NCBI RefSeq assembly: GCF_900232105.1 | Contig: NZ_LT934425.1 | Span: 1,680,001-1,712,000, forward strand | Source of the DNA: Candidatus Kuenenia stuttgartensis | GTDB taxonomy: Bacteria; Planctomycetota; Brocadiia; Brocadiales; Brocadiaceae | Length of the DNA stretch: 32,000 nucleotides | Direction of reading: 5' to 3' | Shown here: positions 2,209-31,608 of the stretch, in pieces | How the letters are laid out: every line of letters starts with the position of its first letter | How positions within the stretch are numbered: position 1 is the first letter of the stretch | The notes under the pieces: generated by a model | Database searches by the model: none | Seen by the model: only the letters and a program-made list of their open reading frames with translations | What the model was told of the DNA's origin: nothing | Program-made: the position numbers and the translations under genes

Positions 2209-2750
2209 GTTATATCAACCTCCCATACTTTATTATAGGGAATAAACGACTCTTTGTTTATTTGCAGTGTATATCTTATTACGAAAAAATTTCCAGCGAT
2301 ATTGTTTTTTCTTTATTGTGATAACGAAAAAAAGGCCTTTCTTCCCATTTACTTTTTGCATAAGTATAACAAAATACCTGCAATGGCATGAATATAAAAT
2401 TAAATATAACAAAAGCTCCGCAACTCCGTAACCAAAAAGATTTTAACCATAATACACGAAAGGTTTATACACCGTAATAGGTAACTATTCAGCGAAAATA
2501 ATTTAGAATTTACTTGACAGCAGAAATGTTACAAACAAGCAATTTACCTGGTAGTGTATGTATATGTTTGTAAATGCGTTAAAAACAGGCAGCAAGATGC
2601 CGTGCATAGAGACGTGTGTGGGGTCTGTTCAGTTATAGAATTTCGAGCCCTTGTGGTGTGTTATAGAGCGAAAGAAAAGGGTGAAAAAACCTGCAGTATA
2701 ATAGATGCAGTAGATAATTTCAGGCTAATTATATATACAGGTATCATCCA

Positions 2751-3362
2751 TTGACGATAGAGAATATAGACGTAGACGCAACACTCCAAAAAGTAGAGAA
2801 GCTGCTTTCAGAAGAGAAAGGGCTGTCACCGGCGGTGAGGTCAATGATAGAGTTGTTGGTATTATTGATAACACTGCTGGTAGGACGTCTGAACCGGAAC
2901 AGCCGCAACAGCAGCAAGCCTCCCTCAAGCGATCCGAATCGCAAGAAAGAAAGCAAGGCGAAGGGTGAAAGGAAGGCAGGCGGGCAAAAGGGCCGTGATG
3001 GAGTAACGCTCAAAAAGGTAGACAATCCTGATGAGGTGGAAGTAATAAAAGTAGACCGGAGGAAGTATCCGCGCAGCAAATACAAGGTGGTAGGTTACGA
3101 AGCACGCCAGGTGTTTGATATAAAGATTTCGCGTGTAGTGACGGAGTATCGTGCAGAGGTAGTAGAGGATGCGAAAGGGAATCGGATTGTAGCGTCATTT
3201 CCGGAAGGGGTAACAAAGGCGGTGCAGTATGGTCCGGATTTGAAAGCACATGCAGTCTATATGTCGCAGTATCAATTGATACCCTACAAGAGGATACAGG
3301 AGTATTTTGAAGGGCAGATTGGGATACCGCTGAGTGAAGGTGCTAAGCCCCACAATAAATGA
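2751..3362 (+). pseudogene. IS66-family transposase, N-terminal fragment
   Basis: Contains the hallmark NSSKPPSSDPNRKK plus GGQKGRDG...VDRRKYP...AVQYGPDLKAHAVYMSQYQLIPYKRIQEYF. Family-like sequence ends near IPLSEG (about 3340), after which the frame runs into unrelated DNA and stops. Confidence 0.8.
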
Positions 3363-3378
3363 ACCTGGAATTCTCAGA

Positions 3379-3681
3379 TTAAGTGGAATTAATATATTGA
3401 GGTAAAACGGATTTTAGCAGATAGACAGCATCTGGGAAAGAGGAGTTGGAATCTACCATGACGATGTCGATGGTATTAAAGTTTTTTTTACAACGGAAAC
3501 ACCTGGCGAGGTTCGTATTTGGGTTGGTGGCGGAATTAAATTCAGAACAGAGAGGGCAGAGGAAGCGGAAATAGCCTTCGGAGTATTTATGAGGTATGGA
3601 GAGGACATCAGCGATGAGTCGATCGATGGGGATATCGTTTCGTAATGAGCGCAAGAGTTGAGGGGAAAAGAGACGGGCCAT
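3379..3681 (-). CDS. small zinc-finger protein (CHC2 primase-finger-like CPLC...CFRC)
   Basis: 100-aa ORF, last gene of the module. FRFLCPLCSEFNSATNPNTNLARCFRCKKNFNTIDIVM resembles the CHC2 zinc-finger layout. It starts 11 nt after the ATPase stop. Confidence 0.5.
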   Translation of the reverse strand: MARLFSPQLLRSLRNDIPIDRLIADVLSIPHKYSEGYFRFLCPLCSEFNSATNPNTNLARCFRCKKNFNTIDIVMVDSNSSFPDAVYLLKSVLPQYINST

Positions 3682-3692
3682 GGTAGACCTCC

Positions 3693-4484
3693 TTAAAAAG
3701 ATTGAATTTCAGCAAGAGCCTGATGGAAGATATCCTGGGTAATTTTCTGTGATTGTCTGATGGAAGCGTTAATCAGGCAGGCGGTGGAAATGGCGTTGAT
3801 TTGCCTTGGGATGCCGGCGGAGAACTCATGGATCAGGTCTTTGACGTCTGAGTCAAAGATTTTATCGGATGCGCCGGAAGATTTCAGATGGAAGTCTATG
3901 TATGCAGCGGTTTGAGTTTTAGTAAGGGGATGAATGTGGTAATGTACCGAGATGCGTTGTGCGAAGTCGGCATGGATGTCTCTTTTGAGGATATATTTGA
4001 GGTGTTCCTGTCCCGAGAGGATGATTTTGAGATGAGTGGAAGAATCAAGCGGAGAGCTGACAAGGAGTCTGAGGTCTGTGATGGCGTCGGTTTTCAGGAG
4101 ATGAGCCTCGTCGATAACGATAATGGGAGTGAGATTTGAGCGCAAGGATTTATCCATAATTTGGAGGAAGAGCCGGTCTTTGGTGTGTTTTGGTATTTCA
4201 CCGAGCTGGGAGACGATTAAGGAGAGAAGGCTGGATGATTTTAGGTGGGTAAAATGGAGGTAGATGGGGAGAAACAGGTTTTGGGGGATTTGTGAGAGGA
4301 AGAGTTTGAGGAGTGTGGATTTTCCGACTCCCGTCTGTCCGTAGAGGACGGCGATAGAGCCTGAGTGTAAGAGGTATTGGAGTCGTGCAAGCCCCTGGGT
4401 AAAGCGTTCGTCTTTCATGATAAGGCTGGTGTTGATTCTTTCAGAGAACGGCTGAGTAGTCATGGAAAAATGAGAAGTAAACAT
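3693..4484 (-). CDS. AAA+ ATPase, ExeA/TniB-like transposition helper
   Basis: 263 aa with Walker A GQTGVGKST and Walker B IIVIDEAHLL. It starts 2 nt after the transposase stop. Its position downstream of a Mu-type transposase matches the Tn552/Tn5053 layout. Confidence 0.8.
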   Translation of the reverse strand: MFTSHFSMTTQPFSERINTSLIMKDERFTQGLARLQYLLHSGSIAVLYGQTGVGKSTLLKLFLSQIPQNLFLPIYLHFTHLKSSSLLSLIVSQLGEIPKHTKDRLFLQIMDKSLRSNLTPIIVIDEAHLLKTDAITDLRLLVSSPLDSSTHLKIILSGQEHLKYILKRDIHADFAQRISVHYHIHPLTKTQTAAYIDFHLKSSGASDKIFDSDVKDLIHEFSAGIPRQINAISTACLINASIRQSQKITQDIFHQALAEIQSF

Positions 4485-4486
4485 GG

Positions 4487-6047
4487 TTAAGAGACCTCCT
4501 TTTTCGAGTAAGCGATTTGTAATTCACGAATGATATAGGGTAAGGTTTTCACGGAGGCATTTTGGAATGCCTCCGTGAGCAATGATTCGTTGAGAGCGGG
4601 GATACGGTTGTAGCATTTTTTAAGCGATTCGAGTTCATGAGAGCTGAAGGCGGAGAGAGAGCCTTTGTGTCCCATGAGGAGTGCGAGTTTCTGGACGAAT
4701 GCCATGAATGGCCAGGGTCGTTCGGAGATGATTTGGTGGTAATCAATGCCTTTGGCCTGAGCCTGGAGAATGGATTTGTGTTTCTGAGTGATAAGGTCGA
4801 GGTAATTATGTTTTGGTTTTGAAGGTGAGGCGGCTGGAGTTTCAGCGCCCTGGTCGCGCAGGTAGAGATTTCCCGAGCCGAGGTATTCACCGTTTGCGGA
4901 ATAGATCAAGACCTTTTTGAGATCGCCGTATGGGTCGTAACGGACTTCTACTTTATCGCCTCTGAGTTTGGGGTCAACACGGTAAAAGCGGTTATCAATG
5001 CGGACATCGGCAAAGGTTCTGTCAACGGTTCTGGGGATGCGTTTCATGAAGAAGGCAAGAGCGGCGTCCATATCGACGTGTCGGATGACGGTAAGCCCCT
5101 CGTCGTAGCGTTGTTTTGGAGATTGATTGGTTTCGGAGTGGATTCTTGCGTGATAGACAACGGCAAGGTAAGCGGAGAAGGCCTGGTTAATGGCATCAAG
5201 GGTGATAATGTCGCCGGAGCGGACTTCCGACTCGAACTGTGTCTGGCTGGTGCCGAAGAAACGTTCGACCAGTCCGCCGGGAGCAGGGTCGCGTGGTGGT
5301 CTGTGGATGAGTTTAATGCCGAGGTTGTAACAGGCAGAGCGCAGGGCGTCAGAGTGGTAGACCTTGGCATTGTCGAGGTAGAGTTCTTTGGGCGAGCCGT
5401 GGATAGTCCAGGCCCTGATGAGAGAATCGATAAGGATATCGAGGGTTTGTTTGAGATAATACCGTTCTTCGACCACATAACGGCTGTAGCAGTCGATAAA
5501 GAGACAGAGGTTTGTGGGAAGCGCCTCGCCGTCAACGAGCACGAAAGGGCCTTCCTGGAAGTCGCCAATCCAGAGGTCGTGGGTATGCTCACGGCTAAGA
5601 GCGTATACGCACCTTTTGCTGTGAGACGCCGAGTTTGAGCCGGGTCGCCCCTGCGAGTCTGAGATGGCGGTAGAGGGTGGATTTGGGGATCGTTTTCCCA
5701 TAGTATTTCTCAAGAAAGCGGTTGAGGCAATCGTCGCTGCGGCGTGGTTGTTCTTTTTTGAGTTCAACGGCTTTGTCGATAATTTCAGGAGAAAACCTTC
5801 TGGATGCGCCACGGTCGCTCCTCGCCTTTCTTGCAAGAGATTGAAATCCATCTTTGCGGTAGCGGTTGAGTTTTCTCCTGAGGGTAGAGATAGTGGGTCT
5901 TTTCCGCTTTCCGTTGGGGAATACGACCTCCTGAAGGCAGAGTTTTTTCAGAAAAAGGTTGGTCTGCTCCTTCTCAATCTCACCGAAGATGACAGGATGC
6001 AGAAGATTGCACCAGAATAAAGCCCATTTTTCGTCTTTCGATTTCAT
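4487..6047 (-). pseudogene. Mu/Tn552-type DDE transposase (HTH + rve core), split by a frameshift
   Basis: Two overlapping ORFs, 6047-5595 (HTH part, 150 aa) and 5851-4487. The second holds the rve core: LWIGDFQEG, LYLDNAKVYHSD, GGLVERFFGT. The family-like sequence switches frame by +1 near CAGCAAAAGG (plus-strand 5611-5620). Confidence 0.8.
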
Positions 6048-6085
6048 AATTCACCTCCTTTTTTAAGTGTGGAGGTGATTGTAAC

Positions 6086-6724
6086 TCAAGACCAGCCGCT
6101 TTTTGTTGCCAGTTCGGGGAAAAATGAATGCCCAAAAATTCGGTGATATTCCGGCTCGGCGCTGAACAATTGAATCGATTGATCGAGGGAGGTTTTTCGT
6201 TGTTTGCTTTTATACTTTCCGTGGTAAATGGGAAACATTTGGCGAAAAACCGGAGAGTTGGGGTCGGCCTGCCTGATGAGGTCAAAGGCGTTGCGGAGTG
6301 TGTATTTCAGTGAGCCAAAGAAACGCAGCCACCTCCAAACGGTTGACCAGGCAAGCATGCGGTTGTCTATTTCCTGTGTTCGGGTAGTATATCCGATGGC
6401 AGAGGAGACACTCCGGTAGGTTTCTGTATCATCTTTGACATAAGCCTGACTGAAGGAGAGACAGTGATCCTTTACGTACCGCTTGTAAGGGAGCGCATAC
6501 TCAGGATAGGAAGTAAACGTCTTCTTGCACAAGGAACATTTCCAACGTCCCAGGAAAGATTCTATCGTATGAACAAGGGAGTCGATAATAACGTGAAACA
6601 ACCGATATCTGCATTCATGAAGGGTGAAATTGACATGGGTACTCTTGCACTTTGGACAAAAGCATGGCTTCTGTTTTGTCGCAATAAGCTTTTCATGCTT
6701 GTGGATTTTTTCTATAATATTCAC
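6086..6724 (-). CDS. zinc-ribbon protein of unknown function, first gene of the module (DUF6431-like by memory)
   Basis: 212 aa with a GTG start preceded by AAGGAGG at 6-nt spacing. Two CxxC pairs (CPKCKS, CSLCKK), with conserved-looking HECRYR and LPYKRY. Confidence 0.55.
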   Translation of the reverse strand: MNIIEKIHKHEKLIATKQKPCFCPKCKSTHVNFTLHECRYRLFHVIIDSLVHTIESFLGRWKCSLCKKTFTSYPEYALPYKRYVKDHCLSFSQAYVKDDTETYRSVSSAIGYTTRTQEIDNRMLAWSTVWRWLRFFGSLKYTLRNAFDLIRQADPNSPVFRQMFPIYHGKYKSKQRKTSLDQSIQLFSAEPEYHRIFGHSFFPELATKSGWS

Positions 6725-6753
6725 GCACTGCCTCCTTTGTATAGGGGGGAAAT

Positions 6754-6805
6754 GGGCAGGAGGATGAAGTTTCCCAACGTTCGGTCCTCCTGCCCTGAGT
6801 TTTTT
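6754..6805 (+). terminator. hairpin plus T-run (plus-strand intrinsic terminator geometry) inside the module's upstream end
   Basis: GGGCAGGAGGA (6754-6764) and TCCTCCTGCCC (6785-6795) form a perfect 11-bp stem, followed by tgagTTTTTT (T-run 6800-6805). Confidence 0.4.
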
Positions 6806-7128
6806 ATGTTCCGGAAAAATCTTACAAAACTTGTCCTCGTGAAAACGGGGAACTGGGAAGTAAACCGCCGTTAGGAAGTTTGGAAGTGGTTTTAACCTCT
6901 TCCAAACTATTTAATGAGGCTTTACTCCGCCTTACGGACGGAACTTCTTTCTAACGGGGTAAACGATGTATTTTTCTTAACGTGAACAAAAAATCAAGTG
7001 AAATACTTACGCAGGATAAAAAAAAGGCGGGGTAGCTGGGTAAGATTTTTCAAATCATTTGCTGGGTATTAGACTCAAATATTCTGAGACTAATTGGGCA
7101 TTTTTGGAGCATTTATTCTAAGACGTAG

Positions 7129-7539
7129 CAGCTGGGAACTGATGAGTCAGAAAAATACCGGCAAAGGTATAGGAAGATACTCCAAAACGCAGAAGCCGAA
7201 AGCCCTCCTCCTGATGAAACGAACCGTAAGGGAAAAAGGGGGAGGGTAAAAAGGACAAAGGCACGGAATCTTCTGGAACGATTGAGGACGTATGAGGGTG
7301 ATGTGTTGAGGTTTATGGACAATAAAAATGTTCCCTTTACGAACAATTTGGCAGAAAACGATATCAGGATGACGAAGGTTCAGCAGAAGATATCTGGCTG
7401 TTTTCGTTCTTTGGAGGGAGCGAAAATTTTCTGCCGCATTCGGAGTTATCTCTCGACCTGTCGAAAACAAGGTGTAAATTTGAGCCGGGCATTACAGATG
7501 CTATTCCGTGGCGAATTGCCTGATTTTGCTAGCTCGTAG
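7129..7539 (+). pseudogene. IS66-family transposase, C-terminal fragment
   Basis: Frame 1 after a TAG at 7126-7128 reads QLGTDESEKYRQRYRKILQNAEAESPPPDETNRKGKRGRVKRTKARNLLERLRTYEGDVLRFMDNKNVPFTNNLAENDIRMTKVQQKISGCFRSLEGAKIFCRIRSYLSTCRKQG, which is the typical IS66 tail. Confidence 0.8.
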
Positions 7540-7629
7540 CGACAGTGGGTGAAAATACGCTGAATAGATACCCGTAATAGTATAATACCGGGAAAAAATG
7601 TTTTTGCTCTATCTTAATGGAAATAATAA

Positions 7630-7657
7630 TTGACATTTATTTTCTTTGTGGTACAGT
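7630..7657 (+). promoter_or_regulatory. sigma70-like promoter candidate
   Basis: TTGACA (7630-7635), a 16-nt spacer, then TACAGT (7652-7657). It lies just upstream of the riboswitch-like sequence. Confidence 0.4.
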
Positions 7658-7671
7658 ACCGCCGAATATTT

Positions 7672-7777
7672 CATCGATTGAAAAAGGCAAACCAACCGCA
7701 AGTTTGGGACGCAAAGCCATGGGTCTTAAGCGTGAGTTCTTTATACGTAAAGATTGCCAGGTTGCCGAATTGAGATG
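7672..7777 (+). promoter_or_regulatory. candidate c-di-GMP-I (GEMM-I) riboswitch aptamer
   Basis: GGCAAACC (7686-7693), a hairpin capped by the GNRA loop GCAA (7698-7701), GGGACGCAAAGCC (7706-7718), a second hairpin (TCTTTA-tacg-TAAAGA, 7738-7753), and closing GGTTGCC (7760-7766) complementary to GGCAA(A)CC. The order and spacing parallel the V. cholerae Vc2 aptamer as I recall it. Confidence 0.6.
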
Positions 7778-7946
7778 TTCGCACTTTGCGAGAAGGATAA
7801 GAATTTTCGGGCCATTCATTACGCTTTCACCATATTGCAGAGATCACAAGTAGATTGTAGCGCATAATACTGAAAATGCTTAAGACTTATAGAAAATTAT
7901 CGGGAAATCTTAACAAAGTGCTTCTGGTAAACGTGCATTATAATAA

Positions 7947-7991
7947 AGACCCAAGCCTTTTGCATTACTATGGTTTTGGGTCTTTTTTTTT
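7947..7991 (+). terminator. intrinsic terminator (plus strand)
   Basis: AAGACCCAA (7947-7954) pairs with TTGGGTCTT (7976-7984), followed by a T-run extending to 7991. Confidence 0.6.
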
Positions 7992-8148
7992 GAATAAAGA
8001 AGGTAAAAAAACAGATTGAGATATACGAACGGTGGCATTTTTTTAACACAAAGATAAGGGATGAGTATATTTTTTACGTTTAGGCGCCAATTCGATGTAT
8101 TTTGTGATGGTGTTGTCTTAAACAATTTTTTTTAATGGGAGAGTAAAA

Positions 8149-8787
8149 ATGTTAAAACTTAGAAAGTGGGGGAATGCGGGTTTTACCCTGATTGAGCTGC
8201 TGGTGGTAATTGCCATTATCGGCATCCTTGCCGGTATACTGCTGCCGGTGCTTGGTAAGGCACGTGAATCGGCACGAAAGACGCAATGCGCATCAAATTT
8301 GAAACAGATTGGACTGGCGCTGAATATGTTTGCCAATGATAATGGTGAAGCTTTTCCCAATAAGGGTACAGGTATGACTTCCTTGGGACAATTGTTTAAT
8401 ACATATATTACTGACAGGAAAATATTTCGTTGCCCAAGTGATAGCGGTGTGACAGAGGAAAATAATTTAAAGTTAGCCGAGATGTCTGAAGGACCGCTAG
8501 TTGAGAACACTAACTTTACTATAGATAAATGTAGTTATGGTTACGATGGTAATCATACGGCAGCAGATGACCCAGGCGTAGTGTTGGCAGCAGATGCGCG
8601 AGGATCAAGTACCGCTGGCACTAATTCAGATAATCATAACCAAACCGGTCAAAATGTGCTTTACCTGGATGGACACGTGGAATGGAAAGGCACTGCCACA
8701 TGCGGATATTATGAGGGTACAGCGTCAACGTATGATAATATTTACGCAGGAACAGGGGGCGGTACGGATACCGCAATATTACAATAA
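8149..8787 (+). CDS. prepilin-type N-terminal cleavage/methylation domain protein (DUF1559 / pseudopilin-like)
   Basis: 212 aa with a GGGAGAG SD. The N-terminus ends in G|[16 protein letters not shown] with the conserved Glu5, followed by [21 protein letters not shown]. The C-terminus [17 protein letters not shown] resembles the H-X9-DG end of planctomycete DUF1559 proteins. Confidence 0.85.
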
Positions 8788-8813
8788 TAATTTTTTTTCT
8801 TTCTCTTACTAAA

Positions 8814-8848
8814 AAGGGTGATATTCATAATGGATATTGCCCTTTTTT
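8814..8848 (+). terminator. intrinsic terminator
   Basis: AAGGGTGATAT (8814-8824) pairs with ATATTGCCCTT (8834-8844) if G-U pairs are allowed, followed by a T-run. Confidence 0.6.
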
Positions 8849-8905: not shown

Positions 8906-9535
8906 ATGTTCAAATTAAAAACCCGGGGGATTTCTGGTTTTACATTAATCGAATTGCTGGTAGTAATTGCAATTATTGGCATTCTGGTATCTATCCTCTT
9001 GCCGGTTTTGGGAAAGGCGCGGGAATCCGCACGTAGAACGCAGTGTGCATCAAACCTGAAGCATATTGGCCTGGCGCTTCGAATGTATGCTAATGATCAT
9101 GATGGGGCGTTTCCTGCCGGAGGAAGCACGGGCATGGAATCGCTCGGCACATTATACAATAAATATATAATTGAGCGAAAAATCTTTCGTTGCCCAGGCG
9201 ATAGCGACGTTAGCGAAGCGAATAATCTGAATCTGACGGCGGTATCGGACCTTTTGTCCCCAAATACTTCATTTACCACTGCCGGTTGCAGTTACGGCTA
9301 TGACTACACCCACACACTGGAAGATGACCCGGGTGTAATCATAGCCGCAGATGCTCAGGGAACAAGCACTACCTGACGTTCAGACAATCATAATGAGACG
9401 GGACAGAATGTGTTATATTTAGATGGACATGTGGAATGGAAAGGCACTACCACCTGCGGATATTACAATGGTTCAACGTATGATGATATTTATTCCGGTA
9501 CGGGGAATGGTACTGATACCTACATAGCACCGTAA
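8906..9535 (+). pseudogene. paralogous prepilin-type/DUF1559 gene interrupted by an in-frame TGA
   Basis: Starts [11 protein letters not shown]|[16 protein letters not shown]. It can be aligned along its whole length with the 8149-8787 product. A TGA at 9374-9376 sits in a conserved stretch, and the same frame continues as [30 protein letters not shown] to a TAA at 9533-9535. No obvious SD precedes the ATG. Confidence 0.75.
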
Positions 9536-10221: not shown

Positions 10222-12349
10222 GTTTGCAACCCAATGTCATTAAGTTAAGCAATCTGCCAGAAAAGTCCCCCTTAAACTAGCGTGAGTTTATCACGAAATA
10301 AGGTGTAAGACAAAGACATCAAGTTGCAATCCAATGATTTGTATCGGGTTGCGACTTTTTTTGTCTAAAAAATTATGTATACACTGAATAATACTATATT
10401 TATATTGCATTATATGCCTGTATATACTATTATACACGGAGTATTAATCTATTACGTATACACTAACAACTAATAGCCATGGCTACCATTCAATCTAAAA
10501 ACTCCAGAGGTTATAAATATTGGTATATTGTCGAATCGCGGCGCGTTAACGGCAAGCCCAGGCCCATCGTCCTGGCCTATCTTGGCAAGGCAGACGATTT
10601 ATTAAAACAACTGCAAGGTCTTACCGAAAAATTACGGCTCAAATCTTATTCACATGGCGCGGTAGCCGCATTGCTAAGTGTGGCCAATGCCCTGGACGTC
10701 CCTTCCGTGATTAATAAATATATAAAGTCGCCACGGCAGTATTGTGCTAAAAAACCTGTTCGAAATAATCTGACCGCCGGAAGTACCCTCTTGTTGGGTG
10801 CCGTGGGGAGAGTGTGTGTGCCTACCAGCAAAAGAGGATGGTGGGATTGGGCAAAGACGACTACTGCCGAATACTTACTCAGACACAGCTTGAGTAAAAT
10901 AGACAGTCAGCATTTCTGGGATTTGATGGATGCACTTCCTGAAGAATCCATTGCAGAAATCGAGCGCGAATTAATTGAAAAGACATTTAAAACATACAAC
11001 CTTCAAAGCGACACACTGTTTTTTGATACAACCAATTTTTTCACGTATATCGACACAACTAATCTGCGATGCACTATTGCCCGGCGGGGGAAAAACAAAC
11101 AAAAGCGATACGATCTCAGGCAGGTCGGGTTGGCGATGGTCGTTACACGTAACGACATGATACCGTTGTTTCACCATACCTATCAGGGGAACATGGCGGA
11201 TGCAAAGGTGTTCAGCGCGGTTCTTGAGACGATAAAAGACAGGATGACCGGATTAGGTTTCGACAGCAAAAAGCACACTATTGTTTTTGATCGTGGAAAC
11301 AATTCCATGGACAATATGGCTATTGTAGAGAGATTGGCATTGCATTACGTTGGAGCGCTTACACCGTATCATCACAAGCAGTTGGTAGGGGATGCCATGT
11401 GTAATTTCAGGGAATATGACGTTGACGGCAGTAAGATACAGGTGTACCATGACAAACGGGTTATTTGGGGGCAGGAAAGAACCGTTGTCGTATTTATTTC
11501 CGAGAAATTAAAGGTTGGGCAATTAAGGGGAATGTCTCAGTCTCTGGAAAAGGCAGAACATCAGTTAAAGCTCTTACAGCAGCATCTGTGTAATCCAAAG
11601 GGAAAGATGCGGGACAAAGAGGGTCTGGAGGATACGATAAGAAGTGTAGTGAAATGTCAATTTGCGAAGGATGTTATCGATTGGTCGTTAAAAGAGGTAT
11701 CTGAAGGCAAGTTTCAATTGAATTTTTCAATCGACCAGAAAAAGCTCGAAGAAATAGAAGGGGAACTGGGGTTCAGGATTCTTATGACAGACCATCACGA
11801 TTGGGATACCGCGGACATTATAAAAGCCTACTATGGGCAATCAAAAATTGAACATGCCTTTAGAAATCTCAAGAACCCCTATCACCTTGCTTTAAAACCG
11901 CAATTTCACTGGACGGATCAGAAAATCAGGGTGCATTTTTTTATTTGCGTCCTCGGATACCTAATGGCGGCGATTGTGTGGTATCAGGCAAAAGCGCACG
12001 CACAATTTAGTGGAACGTTAGATACCCTGTTAGACACCCTTAATAATATAAGGCTTTCTGCTATGCTTGAAGAAACAAAGGCCAGAGGGAGAGTTAAGGC
12101 TACCTACAAATTGGAAGAAATGTCCGACAAGGAATCTCTGTTGATGAATGCGTTAGGCATTATGGATTTCCACAAACATCGGCTGAAACTTCAAGGACTC
12201 AGTGTATACAATTGATGTTGTGCTTAACGCATTGACTGTATTTATGTTACGTTGCTTCATGCCTTATTTTGTGATAAACTCACGCTAGGGGGATAAAGGG
12301 GGTTGTTTTTAATCAAATATCCTTAACTTAATGACATTAGTTTGCAACC
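10222..12349 (+). mobile_element. IS1634-family insertion sequence with long (~80-bp) imperfect terminal inverted repeats
   Basis: The left end 10222-10303 and right end 12262-12349 are inverted copies. Shared blocks include TTGCAA, AATGTCATTAAGTTAAG and CTAGCGTGAGTTTATCAC-AAATAAGG. No target duplication is evident. Confidence 0.75.
10479..12215 (+). CDS. IS1634-family (IS4-related) DDE transposase
   Basis: 578 aa. The N-terminus YKYWYIVESRRVNGKPRPIVLAYLGK is typical of IS1634 transposases. DDE-region motifs FFDTTNFFTY and IVFDRGNNS are present. Confidence 0.85.
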   Translation: MATIQSKNSRGYKYWYIVESRRVNGKPRPIVLAYLGKADDLLKQLQGLTEKLRLKSYSHGAVAALLSVANALDVPSVINKYIKSPRQYCAKKPVRNNLTAGSTLLLGAVGRVCVPTSKRGWWDWAKTTTAEYLLRHSLSKIDSQHFWDLMDALPEESIAEIERELIEKTFKTYNLQSDTLFFDTTNFFTYIDTTNLRCTIARRGKNKQKRYDLRQVGLAMVVTRNDMIPLFHHTYQGNMADAKVFSAVLETIKDRMTGLGFDSKKHTIVFDRGNNSMDNMAIVERLALHYVGALTPYHHKQLVGDAMCNFREYDVDGSKIQVYHDKRVIWGQERTVVVFISEKLKVGQLRGMSQSLEKAEHQLKLLQQHLCNPKGKMRDKEGLEDTIRSVVKCQFAKDVIDWSLKEVSEGKFQLNFSIDQKKLEEIEGELGFRILMTDHHDWDTADIIKAYYGQSKIEHAFRNLKNPYHLALKPQFHWTDQKIRVHFFICVLGYLMAAIVWYQAKAHAQFSGTLDTLLDTLNNIRLSAMLEETKARGRVKATYKLEEMSDKESLLMNALGIMDFHKHRLKLQGLSVYN

Positions 12350-13347: not shown

Positions 13348-15198
13348 CGGATGTTCACCCCTGCCAAAACGCATAAGTGCTTAATACATAGTTTGTTAAG
13401 GCTGTATTTTAATAAATATGTAGTCACTAATATATTGTTATTTACGACAATATACTTGACTGATAATGGTTGTTATCTGTACAATGGTGGACATGCATAT
13501 TGTAGAGAACAAGTCAAAATCCGGTAAAAAAATCTATCGATCTACCCTTCTGCGGGAATCGTACCGTGAGGATGGGAAGGTCAAGAAACGCACCATTGCG
13601 AATCTGTCGAATTGCACTCCCCTGGAGATTGAAGCGATAAGACTTGCACTCGCACATAAAGACGATCTCTGTGCATTGGGCGCATTGTCAGAATCGGTGA
13701 AACTCCATGAGGGTTTGTCTGTGGGAGCAGCGTGGAGCGTGTACCAAGTGGCAAAGGAATTAGGGATAGAAGAGGCATTGGGAAAGGACTTTGAAGGAAA
13801 GCTGGCGCTTTGGCAAGTAATGGCAAGGGTAATAGGCCGGGGGTCAAGACTGTCTGCAGTAAGGCTGGCGCAGATACATGCTGCGGGTGACGTCCTGGAT
13901 ATGAAGCGTGGGTTTGACGAGAACAATCTGTACGATAATTTGTCATGGTTGTCAGAGAATCAGGCAAAGATAGAGCGAAAGCTGTTTGAGTTAAGACGAG
14001 GAGGCAATAAGCCGAAGTTGTTTTTGTATGACGTGACGAGCAGTTATTTAGAGGGGAAGTCGAATCATTTTGGTGAGTACGGGTATAATCGTGACGGCAA
14101 AAAGAGGAAAAAACAGATAGTGATCGGTATGCTTTGTGATGAATCCGGGGAGCCGGTATCAACAGAAGTATTTAGGGGCAACACCCAGGATCCGAAGACC
14201 TTTGAATCTCAGGTAAAGAAGGTATTAGAGCGGTTTGGATGCAAAGATGTAACGATTGTAGGAGATCGTGGGATGATCAAGACGGTGCAAATCGAAAGTT
14301 TACCGGAAGGGTTTCATTACATAACGGCGATAACCAAGCCGCAGATAGAGTCGTTGATAAATAAAGGGATACTGCAATTAGGATTGTTCGAAGAAAAGCT
14401 CTGCGAGATAAAGGATGATGAGGTTAGATATATTCTGAGGCGCAATCCGGTAAGGGCGGAAGAGATGTCAAAGACCCGTGTATCAAAATTACAGAGTATA
14501 GAGAAATACATCGTGAAGAAGAACAGTTATCTGAAGGAACATCCTAAGTCGTCAGTATCGAAGGCCCTGGAAACAACAAGGGAAAGGCTAACGAGATTGA
14601 AACTTGATGGGTGGGTGCAGATAAAAGAAGAGGATAGGACGCTAAAGATAGAGAGAGATGAGGAAGCATTAAAGGAGGCATCATACCTTGATGGTTGTTA
14701 CGCAATCAAGACTGATCTTGAGGAGAACGAGGCGGATACCAATCTGGTACATGAACGATACAAGGATTTAACGGAAGTGGAGAAGGCGTTTCGGGACTGT
14801 AAGACGGTGAATTTGGAGGTTCGTCCGGTGTATGTAAGAAAGGAGGATAGTACACGGGGACATGTGTTTGTGGTAATGCTTGCGTACATGATAATTCGAA
14901 GGCTGCGCAGAGCGTGGAAGAATTTTGACTTGACGGTAGAGGAAGGTCTCGCACAATTGACGACCATTTGTTCGATGGAAGTAACAATCAAAGGCCAAAA
15001 AGCTAGTTGCCAGAAGATCCCGCGTCCGCGGCAACAATCACATGAATTATTAGAGGCATTACAGATAAAGTTGCCAGAAGTATTGCCAAGCCGGAACATA
15101 CGGGTAGTCACTAGAAAAAAGCTTGCTGTTCGGCGTAAAAGCCAATAAATATAAGGCTTTTACGGCACTTTTGTTTTTTGACTTGGGGTGAACATCCG
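13348..15198 (+). mobile_element. second, different IS1634-family insertion sequence with a 6-bp target duplication
   Basis: IRs CGGATGTTCACCCC (13348-13361) and GGGGTGAACATCCG (15185-15198), with further partial matches inward. They are flanked directly by TTTCAA (13342-13347 and 15199-15204). Confidence 0.8.
13493..15148 (+). CDS. IS1634-family DDE transposase
   Basis: MHIVENKSKSGKKIYRSTLLRESYREDGKVKKRTIANLS is the family-typical N-terminus. Motifs LFLYDVTSSY and IVGDRGM are present. Alternative in-frame ATGs lie at 13466 and 13484. A TTGACT-18-TACAAT promoter candidate at 13456-13485 favours 13493. Confidence 0.85.
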   Translation: MHIVENKSKSGKKIYRSTLLRESYREDGKVKKRTIANLSNCTPLEIEAIRLALAHKDDLCALGALSESVKLHEGLSVGAAWSVYQVAKELGIEEALGKDFEGKLALWQVMARVIGRGSRLSAVRLAQIHAAGDVLDMKRGFDENNLYDNLSWLSENQAKIERKLFELRRGGNKPKLFLYDVTSSYLEGKSNHFGEYGYNRDGKKRKKQIVIGMLCDESGEPVSTEVFRGNTQDPKTFESQVKKVLERFGCKDVTIVGDRGMIKTVQIESLPEGFHYITAITKPQIESLINKGILQLGLFEEKLCEIKDDEVRYILRRNPVRAEEMSKTRVSKLQSIEKYIVKKNSYLKEHPKSSVSKALETTRERLTRLKLDGWVQIKEEDRTLKIERDEEALKEASYLDGCYAIKTDLEENEADTNLVHERYKDLTEVEKAFRDCKTVNLEVRPVYVRKEDSTRGHVFVVMLAYMIIRRLRRAWKNFDLTVEEGLAQLTTICSMEVTIKGQKASCQKIPRPRQQSHELLEALQIKLPEVLPSRNIRVVTRKKLAVRRKSQ

Positions 15199-30393: not shown

Positions 30394-31608
30394 TCATGTG
30401 ATGTGTGCGGTTTCCTTTTGCGCATGTAAGGCATCGAAAGTAACGACACGGTCTTTTATGTCTAAATCATCAAACAATACCGGAACCATCGGTATTTCGT
30501 TTGTTTTGCAGTCTACCTGAGTTTGTGCGAGAACTATACCCTGTTTATGAAGAAAAGCGGCAAGCAAATGTACCTGTTTGCCGTCAGGCTGTCTTGCACC
30601 GCAAAGGGTTTTCCCGTCAACCGCAATGGGCAGGCTTTTATCACCTACAGATTGAAACCAACGCGAGAGGACTTTATCAACTGCTTCTGCATCCACCTGC
30701 TGTAAGAAACGCCTGATGGTAGGTTCACTCGGTGGTTCGTATCGTTTCGTTTTTGTATTATAACGGCAGGAGAGACGTTTTAGCATATTTTGCGGACAAC
30801 GCTTTGCCCACTCTGCAATGGCGGCAAAGCTCCAGGCATTGCAGATGATAGCACAGATAGAAATTGCCAGGATAGAACGTTTCCTGTGGCGAACGCCTCT
30901 GGGCATGCGATGTTCAGGGATTTGCTGCAATAATTCGTCAAGAAATTCCGCATCTTTTAAAGATAATTTCATAGGCTTTGTCTCCTTTCTTAATTGTATG
31001 GTAAGATTAGGGTTATTAAGTTGTTTTTGGACTTGTGCTTTCAATGAGCGAACAAAGACCATCTTTGGCTTATTGTGCAGAAGATAGCCTTGTGATGATC
31101 TGGCAAAACCGGTTGAATGTCCTAAAAAAATCCATCCTGCGGCCTTATAGCAGACGCCTTTAAAAAAACGAGGGTCGACAAAGGTCTCCACAAGCCAGAT
31201 TGGATGCCCATAGACCTTAGTCCAGTCTTGTGATAAGCGTTTAAGGTTAAGAGAAAGAATACGGGAGGCAAGGTTTGGTACGTGTATCTGAGGAAGGATC
31301 AGGAAACGTGAGTTGTTTGCTATGAGTTTCAGGCGTTGTGATTTTAAAAATGGCGGCCATCCAATCCACTTATCGCGAACGGTACATTTTAATGCTGCGG
31401 CAGCCCAGCCGATCAAGGCAAGCCATTGTCCCTGTGATTCCGCTACGTAGCGAATTGATTCTCCTACGAGAGAACGAAATCCAAGGTAATGATGCTGGCG
31501 CATCAGTGTGTCCCAATTTGCCTGGTCGTTTTGTGAAACAGGACGAACGGTAATTGAATGAAGTAGTTCGTTGTGTGTGTTATCGATTGGTGTTGTATGC
31601 TGGTTCAT
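30394..31608 (-). pseudogene. DUF4338 (DruA-like) domain fused to an ISAs1-family transposase, 3'-truncated
   Basis: The N-terminal ~200 aa have HHYLGF, RDKWIGW, NNSRFLILP, NLASRILSL, ETFVDPRFFKGVCYKAAGW (DUF4338 pattern). Next come the DDE_Tnp_1_assoc-like RHRKRSILAISICAII and ISAs1 motifs AVDGKTLCGA, KTNEIPMVP, VVTFDALHAQK. The ORF stops shortly after the second Asp, so the Glu-containing tail is missing. Confidence 0.75.

Follow-up and report, generated by a model that had tools for sequence, protein, structure and literature searches.

A predicted c-di-GMP-I riboswitch in the leader of DUF1559 pseudopilin-like genes of Candidatus Kuenenia

The window analysed here is a 32,000-nucleotide stretch of the genome of the anaerobic ammonium-oxidizing (anammox) planctomycete Candidatus Kuenenia stuttgartensis (also spelled stuttgartiensis; contig NZ_LT934425.1, positions 1,680,001 to 1,712,000 of the forward strand), and all coordinates below count from its first nucleotide. 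Our subject is the leader of two pilin-like genes, which contains a promoter, a predicted riboswitch aptamer of the cyclic di-GMP (c-di-GMP) class I or GEMM-I type, a large hairpin domain and an intrinsic terminator (Table 1). The locus order, shared with related Brocadiaceae, is a Usp gene, a minus-strand radical-SAM gene, the intergenic leader and one or two plus-strand pilin-like genes. An initial annotation, made from the sequence alone, had proposed a c-di-GMP-I aptamer ahead of tandem prepilin-type genes, and both downstream genes do carry N_methyl and DUF1559 domains.

Table 1. Coordinates of the leader elements, the genes downstream and the adjoining mobile element (window numbering)
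Feature	Position	Strand	Details
Mobile-element insertion, 5.1 kb	2481-7567		IS66-family element split by a nested transposon; from domains and allele comparison
Sigma-70-type promoter	7630-7657	+	-35 TTGACA 7630-7635, 16-nt spacer, extended -10 TGG-TACAGT 7649-7657
c-di-GMP-I aptamer (predicted)	7677-7770	+	RF03167, 69.1 bits; model R1, 89.4 bits, sole R1 match in the window
P1	7677-7680 / 7766-7770	+	Extendable to 7674-7773
P2	7692-7697 / 7702-7707	+	GCAA loop; recovered by RNAalifold
P3	7715-7727 / 7750-7763	+	Recovered by RNAalifold
Switching strand (predicted)	7706-7727	+	GGGACGCAAAGCCAUGGGUCUU; aptamer core and P3 5′ strand; alternative partner of both terminator halves
Closed hairpin domain	~7774-7928	+	Between aptamer and terminator; consensus fold of five leaders
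Intrinsic terminator	7945-7991	+	13-bp stem 7945-7957 / 7972-7985, 14-nt loop, T9 7983-7991, -15.9 kcal/mol
Post-terminator leader	7992-8148	+	Conserved in alignment; Shine-Dalgarno GGGAGAG 8137-8143
Pilin-like gene 1	8149-8787	+	212 aa; N_methyl, SBP_bac_10 (Pfam); prepilin methylation motif, DUF1559, H-X9-DG C-terminus
Pilin-like gene 2	8906-9376	+	156 aa as called publicly (mechanical open reading frame from 8837); N_methyl and DUF1559

Identity of the aptamer

A cmscan search of the whole window against Rfam 15 returned a single riboswitch match, to the family RF03167 (c-di-GMP-I-GGC, clan CL00126), with a score well above the gathering score of 59 and an E value of 1.5e-14, or 3.2e-16 in a local search of 7550-8250. 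Over 7677-7770 the gathering score of a second family from this clan was reached as well, its match being hidden by clan competition; given that the gathering score of RF01051 is only 35, this family is almost certainly RF01051. No other RNA family was found in 7550-8250, where the next best match had an E value of about 2. A plain minimum free energy (MFE) fold of 7660-8000 mispredicted the aptamer and was not significant (z = -0.93), and we did not use it as evidence.

The architecture agrees with this assignment. The Vc2 riboswitch, which belongs to RF01051, contacts its ligand through G20, A47 and C92 (PMC4744006). The window aptamer shares with Vc2 the P1-P2-P3 layout, the GGCAAACC and GGGACGCAAAGCC cores, the conserved interhelical C-G pair (C7710 and G7755) and a GNRA tetraloop on P2 (GCAA at 7698-7701, as initially described), which is GUGA or GCGA in the orthologues. 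G7686, A7713 and C7765, which are kept in all orthologues, we take to be the equivalents of G20, A47 and C92, and by sequence these three residues form the canonical c-di-GMP triad.

Other structural details of the initial annotation needed revision. It had GGTTGCC closing back onto GGCAAACC, but the cmscan alignment puts GGUU in the P3 3′ strand, C7765 at the ligand-contact C and C7766/G7767 within P1. The CTTAAG stretch, described as receptor-like, differs from the canonical 11-nt tetraloop receptor: although the GNRA loop on P2 is present, the CCUAAG...UAUGG receptor is missing from P3. The UACG-capped tip is absent from the orthologues. P3 differs from that of Vc2 both in lacking the receptor and in having a non-conserved apical extension. 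Many members of the c-di-GMP-I family (type 2) have no 11-nt receptor. The window also differs from Vc2 in its host, an anammox planctomycete, and in its downstream genes, which encode DUF1559 pseudopilin-like proteins.

Conservation adds further support. The aptamer occurs in all orthologous Kuenenia-type loci, at 68-72.8 bits, and, further afield in the Brocadiaceae, in the three loci L099, L100 and L101/L102; the best model for L100 is RF01051 (58.3 bits, gathering score 35). Together these give seven distinct leaders in which the aptamer lies in the equivalent intergenic region between the radical-SAM gene and the pilin-like genes. RNAalifold applied to the seven aptamers yielded 21 pairs, reproducing P2, a two-pair G-C/C-G clamp and P3, and 8 of these pairs show compensatory changes. 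Both the covariance-model match and the covariation across homologous leaders thus uphold the aptamer that was first proposed, and we are highly confident that 7677-7770 is a c-di-GMP class I aptamer, its ligand being assigned from sequence.

We built a covariance model, R1, from the seven aptamers. Besides its one match in the window, R1 found no aptamer, among the matches listed, in 80 DUF1559 or pilin-like loci of other bacteria of the Planctomycetes-Verrucomicrobia-Chlamydiae (PVC) group. These 80 loci come from a pilin-alignment scan of a genome collection with a generic peptide pattern; they comprise distant loci only and serve as a negative control. In the data examined, the absence of R1 matches from other PVC pilin loci therefore indicates that the association of this riboswitch with DUF1559 genes, as predicted from sequence, is limited to part of the Brocadiaceae.

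The RF03167 label calls for care. The RF03167 consensus reads GGGACGCGAAgCc where the window has GGGACGCAAAGCC, and at model position 37 the consensus is G, whereas the window and all orthologues have A (A7713). The name GGC reportedly refers to a G replacing A47 (triad G-G-C; Weinberg et al. 2017), which agrees with the RF03167 consensus. A metagenome pattern scan for the aptamer core plus GGGTC, a combination common to GEMM-I in general, gave no lineage-specific leaders and returned 80 aptamers (loci L108-L187), none with a pilin-like gene downstream. All 80 have A at the A47 position, yet among the 20 of them scanned RF03167 was the best Rfam model for 16 and RF01051 for 4. All four RF01051-best aptamers have a receptor-type P3 (UAAxG/UACGG...CUAUGA/CUACGA), and P3 is a plain hairpin in most of the remainder. 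As RF03167 is the best model for most of the canonical-A aptamers scanned, the label stems from model competition and mirrors a scaffold subtype rather than a ligand-pocket variant. The practical warning is that a best match to RF03167 does not mark a GGC-variant aptamer, and that ordinary aptamers are mislabelled by clan competition.

Promoter, terminator and hairpin insert

The promoter candidate TTGACA-16-TACAGT of the initial annotation is present (score 10/12; -10 hexamer at 7652-7657, TG at 7649-7650) and is kept in five orthologous leaders, with TTGACA invariant and a -10 region of TGTGRTAYAGT; in the region as a whole, promoter-like sites are as frequent as in shuffled sequence. Transcription would start at about 7664. 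The claim that 7580-8148 holds no credible coding sequence also stood: the region has only short open reading frames (ORFs) with no Pfam match and non-triplet indels between orthologues. Two small ORFs, at 7617-7853 and 7876-8019, were discarded for want of a Pfam match.

The strong intrinsic terminator placed earlier at 7947-7991 folds as predicted, with a stem that begins two nucleotides further upstream; a consensus scanner missed it because of its long loop. Its stem is invariant in five leaders of the Kuenenia group, and each of the seven distinct leaders has a strong terminator about 14 to 176 nt after the aptamer. The shortest distance is found in L099, where the aptamer is followed after only 14 nt by the same terminator (AAAGACCCAG...CUGGGUCUUUUUUU).

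In the window, the gap of about 170 nt between aptamer and terminator is filled by the hairpin domain. Its closing helix pairs GCACUUUG (7781-7788) with CAAAGUGC (7914-7921), has the consensus GCRCUUUG / CAAAGYGC and shows one A-U to G-C compensatory change in the five-leader consensus fold; an inner helix pairs 7802-7808 with 7892-7898. The apex, at about 7813-7891, is wholly different between species and is deleted in the leader L095, and the entire domain is missing in L099. As the closing helix is conserved and the domain is absent from L099, the models indicate that the gap is a closed, lineage-specific hairpin insert with a dispensable apex, so that in secondary-structure terms the terminator adjoins the aptamer. 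The platform would then be a clear natural example of how a closed hairpin can come to lie between an aptamer and its terminator while the switching complementarity is kept.

The variable apex is flanked in the window by a direct repeat, ATTTTCGGG / ATTATCGGG, at 7804-7812 and 7897-7905, of which L095 has a single copy and no apex. This suggests that the apex is gained or lost by recombination at the repeat.

The post-terminator leader contains a second promoter-like site, TTAACA-17-TATATT, at 8043-8071 (score 10/12). We do not favour it, as its TATATT -10 box is deleted in L091, a loss that speaks against independent transcription of the pilin-like genes. Directly after the terminator, the Kuenenia leaders and L101 share a purine-rich, Shine-Dalgarno-like motif, (A)AGGAGGU followed by an A-rich run (AAGAAGGUAAAAAAACAG in the window, 7992-8010); no conserved in-frame ORF follows this AAGGAGG motif in the orthologues. 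A pairing of an ATCGAT palindrome (7672-7678 with 8093-8098) was not conserved and was dropped.

Direction of regulation

Two complementarities connect the aptamer with the terminator. The terminator 5′ strand AAGACCCA (7946-7953) is a perfect 8-bp complement of the distal P3 5′ strand UGGGUCUU (7720-7727), and the best duplex between the aptamer and this terminator strand, at -14.1 kcal/mol, is matched by about 1% of shuffles (p ~0.01); the equivalent duplex of L099 reaches -17.6 kcal/mol, matched by 0 of 500 shuffles. The terminator 3′ strand GGUUUUG (7972-7978) pairs with the core CAAAGCC (7712-7718) at -17.3 kcal/mol, a value reached by about 0.2% of shuffles (p ~0.002). Because the two pairings are nested, the 22-nt switching strand can sequester both terminator halves.

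Folding of partial and complete transcripts points in the same direction. When transcripts end before the terminator 3′ strand, the MFE structure pairs the terminator 5′ strand with P3 and the aptamer is not intact, in five of five leaders. Enforcing the aptamer fold costs 4.9-14.2 kcal/mol, which is of the order of the c-di-GMP binding energy for the c-di-GMP-I class. In constrained folds of the full-length leader, the conformer with the antiterminator is only 0.7-4.7 kcal/mol less stable than the MFE structure; with the aptamer enforced, no complement to either terminator strand is left free and the terminator forms. Computationally, then, the leader carries a platform that conflicts with the aptamer, made up of an upstream promoter, a downstream terminator and an antiterminator overlapping the core and P3. 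The P3-terminator complementarity and the truncated-transcript folds favour an OFF over an ON switch, and we think it probable, with moderate confidence, that the riboswitch is a kinetic transcriptional OFF switch in which high c-di-GMP stops transcription of the pilin-like genes.

In the mechanism that we propose, the leader would be transcribed from its own promoter and the riboswitch would set read-through into the DUF1559 pseudopilin-like genes by transcription termination. Without ligand, 7706-7727 would pair first with the terminator 5′ strand (7946-7953) and later with the 3′ strand (7972-7978), the terminator would be blocked and RNA polymerase would read into 8149. With c-di-GMP bound, G7686, A7713 and C7765 would contact the ligand and P3 would be locked, allowing the terminator to fold and leaving an RNA of about 325 nt that ends at 7991. 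The 150-nt hairpin at 7774-7928 would bring aptamer and terminator together and take no part in the basic switch.

Several points weigh against this OFF mechanism. The sign of regulation is drawn from modelled folds, and an MFE prediction of a helix spanning 220 nt is weak evidence. The antiterminator strands are invariant in the available Kuenenia and L099 leaders, so their helix has no covariation support, and the distant leaders L100 and L101 have no equivalent P3-terminator pairing. As the terminator is already part of the full-length MFE structure before any ligand energy is added, only a kinetic switch would work. The aptamer is missing from Brocadia- and Wunengus-type orthologous loci, where the intergenic regions are short (250-324 nt). 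In addition, a c-di-GMP-I aptamer can be conserved and followed by a long platform and yet not regulate in vivo, as in Bc1 (PMC11218506). Finally, the metagenomic relatives L138, L163, L169 and L171 use a clear ON-type platform, in which the 3′ strand of the aptamer's P3/P1 doubles as the 5′ half of an overlapping terminator, and the sign of regulation is therefore not fixed in this RNA lineage. Among the Brocadiaceae leaders, L101 (2760-2855) resembles an ON-type design after duplication of GCCUUGCU(A/G)C and ACCGAAAA.

These relatives lend some weight to an ON switch built on the same aptamer, which is also what the initial annotation suggested when it spoke of a long-range on-switch. Here c-di-GMP would promote read-through, for example through alternation of GCACUUUG between CGCAAAG (7710-7716) and CAAAGUGC; GCACUUUGCG does have 7-nt complementarity to the aptamer core, as read from the sequence. 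However, the enforced aptamer leaves nothing complementary to the terminator strands, so the terminator forms. L099, moreover, has aptamer and terminator with no hairpin domain, and a hairpin-dependent mechanism therefore cannot be ancestral. With the gap explained as a closed insert and a complementarity pattern that fits an OFF switch, we consider the ON switch unlikely, though it is the best of the alternatives.

Slightly less likely again is that the leader works through a small RNA, about 325 nt long with its end at 7991, which the riboswitch gates, with the pilin-like genes transcribed mainly from the separate promoter at 8043-8071. The score of that site, the size and conserved stem of the hairpin domain and the conservation of the post-terminator region would all fit such an arrangement, but the site has lost its -10 box in L091, the hairpin apex is hypervariable or deleted, no Rfam small-RNA family matches 7550-8250 (best E about 2) and the linkage of aptamer to pilin genes is conserved across the Brocadiaceae. 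An RNA ending at 7991 is also the terminated product of the OFF mechanism, and it could have a function of its own.

It is also improbable that the aptamer is conserved but silent, like Bc1, or has been uncoupled by the IS66 element through read-through from the same-strand transposase gene. Bc1 offers a precedent, Brocadia-type loci do without the aptamer, the C-terminal ORF of the IS66 transposase ends at 7539 on the plus strand and no terminator was detected between it and 7630. Yet the alleles with and without the insertion agree throughout aptamer and terminator (100% identity), against 84% identity in the adjacent pilin gene, which argues for constraint. The core promoter remains intact together with the 58 bp that precede it, and the two conformers are nearly equal in energy.

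Least probable by far is a variant class with another ligand: although RF03167 is the top model, the defining G of the GGC variant is A7713 here, in all orthologues and, by its equivalent, in the 80 metagenomic aptamers, which speaks against that variant, and position 20 is G7686 rather than the A (G20A) said to typify c-GAMP riboswitches (GEMM-Ib), which speaks against the other. The covariance-model score, the covarying P2 and P3 helices and the ligand-contact residues point to a c-di-GMP-I riboswitch and to neither variant.

As a long shot, the hairpin domain at 7774-7928 may have a function of its own beside the switch, for instance as a kinetic timer, by binding a protein or a ligand, or as the main part of an RNA that acts in trans. 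If true, high c-di-GMP would release a structured regulatory RNA of about 325 nt while shutting off the DUF1559 pseudopilin genes, tying the large, uncharacterized PVC DUF1559 family to c-di-GMP-controlled aggregation in anammox granules.

Comparison with known systems places the proposed OFF switch among familiar relatives. The closest in logic is Cd1, a c-di-GMP-I riboswitch upstream of flgB in Clostridioides difficile in which the ligand favours an intrinsic terminator (OFF). Cd1 has the same aptamer class and the logic that we propose for the window, but the window's antiterminator is formed by J2/3 together with the P3 5′ strand, a stretch able to tie up both strands of the terminator, and a 150-nt hairpin separates its aptamer from the terminator. 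The closest in gene context is a c-di-GMP-II riboswitch that reportedly lies upstream of pilA1 in C. difficile and is an ON switch; it too is a c-di-GMP riboswitch in a pilin-gene leader and links the second messenger to surface fibres and aggregation, but it is of class II and precedes a true type IV pilin, whereas the window has class I and a DUF1559 / H-X9-DG pseudopilin-like gene. The GGC variant of RF03167 shares the top-scoring model and the plain P3 scaffold and differs in its variant-defining G at the A47 position. In Bc1 of Bacillus thuringiensis the class I aptamer is followed by an expression platform of unusual length that has two tandem terminators (PMC11218506); the window likewise has a class I aptamer with a long terminator-based platform, but it has one terminator, set off from the aptamer by the closed hairpin insert.

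What is new here is the host, the target and the hairpin-insert platform; the RNA family itself is well known, and any Rfam-based annotation pipeline would find the aptamer. In our literature searches, no publication turned up that describes a c-di-GMP riboswitch in Planctomycetes or anammox bacteria, or any riboswitch in anammox bacteria. In anammox sludge, c-di-GMP levels are correlated with the production of extracellular polymers and with granulation (review, PMC11224092). The locus is a predicted direct, RNA-level c-di-GMP target in Kuenenia, and it offers a testable link between this second messenger and the DUF1559 / H-X9-DG pseudopilin-like surface family in an organism for which no genetic system is available.

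Downstream genes and mobile elements

The product of the first pilin-like gene appears in NCBI as 'type II secretion system protein' and 'DUF1559 domain-containing protein' of Ca. Kuenenia stuttgartiensis, and the exact protein is found in assembly GCA_900232175.1 (contig OCTL01000036.1); close homologues, at 60-80% identity, are abundant in Brocadiaceae. This gene is a hot spot of divergence, with 83.9% nucleotide and 79% amino-acid identity between two K. stuttgartiensis alleles whose flanks are at least 99% identical. The other allele (L088-L090) has two ORFs in place of an intact second gene. Between the two genes lies a terminator-like hairpin (8811-8847; 17 pairs, then TTTTTATT), and gene 1 may therefore be largely monocistronic.

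The insertion upstream of the leader is missing from the second K. stuttgartiensis allele (L090/L088), in which the flanks are 99.5% identical. It consists of an IS66 transposase split into an N-terminal part (2751-3362, DUF6444) and a C-terminal part (7282-7539, DDE_Tnp_IS66) by a transposon that encodes, on the minus strand, rve and Mu-transposase C domains (4487-5851), AAA_22 (3693-4484) and a CHC2 zinc ribbon (3379-3681), as well as HTH_32 (5595-6047) and DUF6431 (6086-6724). The initial annotation put the insertion about 50 bp upstream of the promoter; comparison with the uninterrupted allele places the right junction at 7567/7568, with 58-62 bp between it and the -35 hexamer and the core promoter untouched.

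Two further insertions relative to L090 lie downstream, one at 10281-12284 (a DDE_Tnp_1 insertion sequence (IS) element with an ORF at 10479-12215) and one at 13349-15198 (a 560-aa ORF at 13466-15148), the latter also present in L088. Public assemblies of the locus (contigs L002-L006) break exactly at these IS boundaries. Towards the far end of the window, a minus-strand ORF at 30394-31608 encodes a DruA (Druantia) domain together with a DDE_Tnp_1-associated domain.

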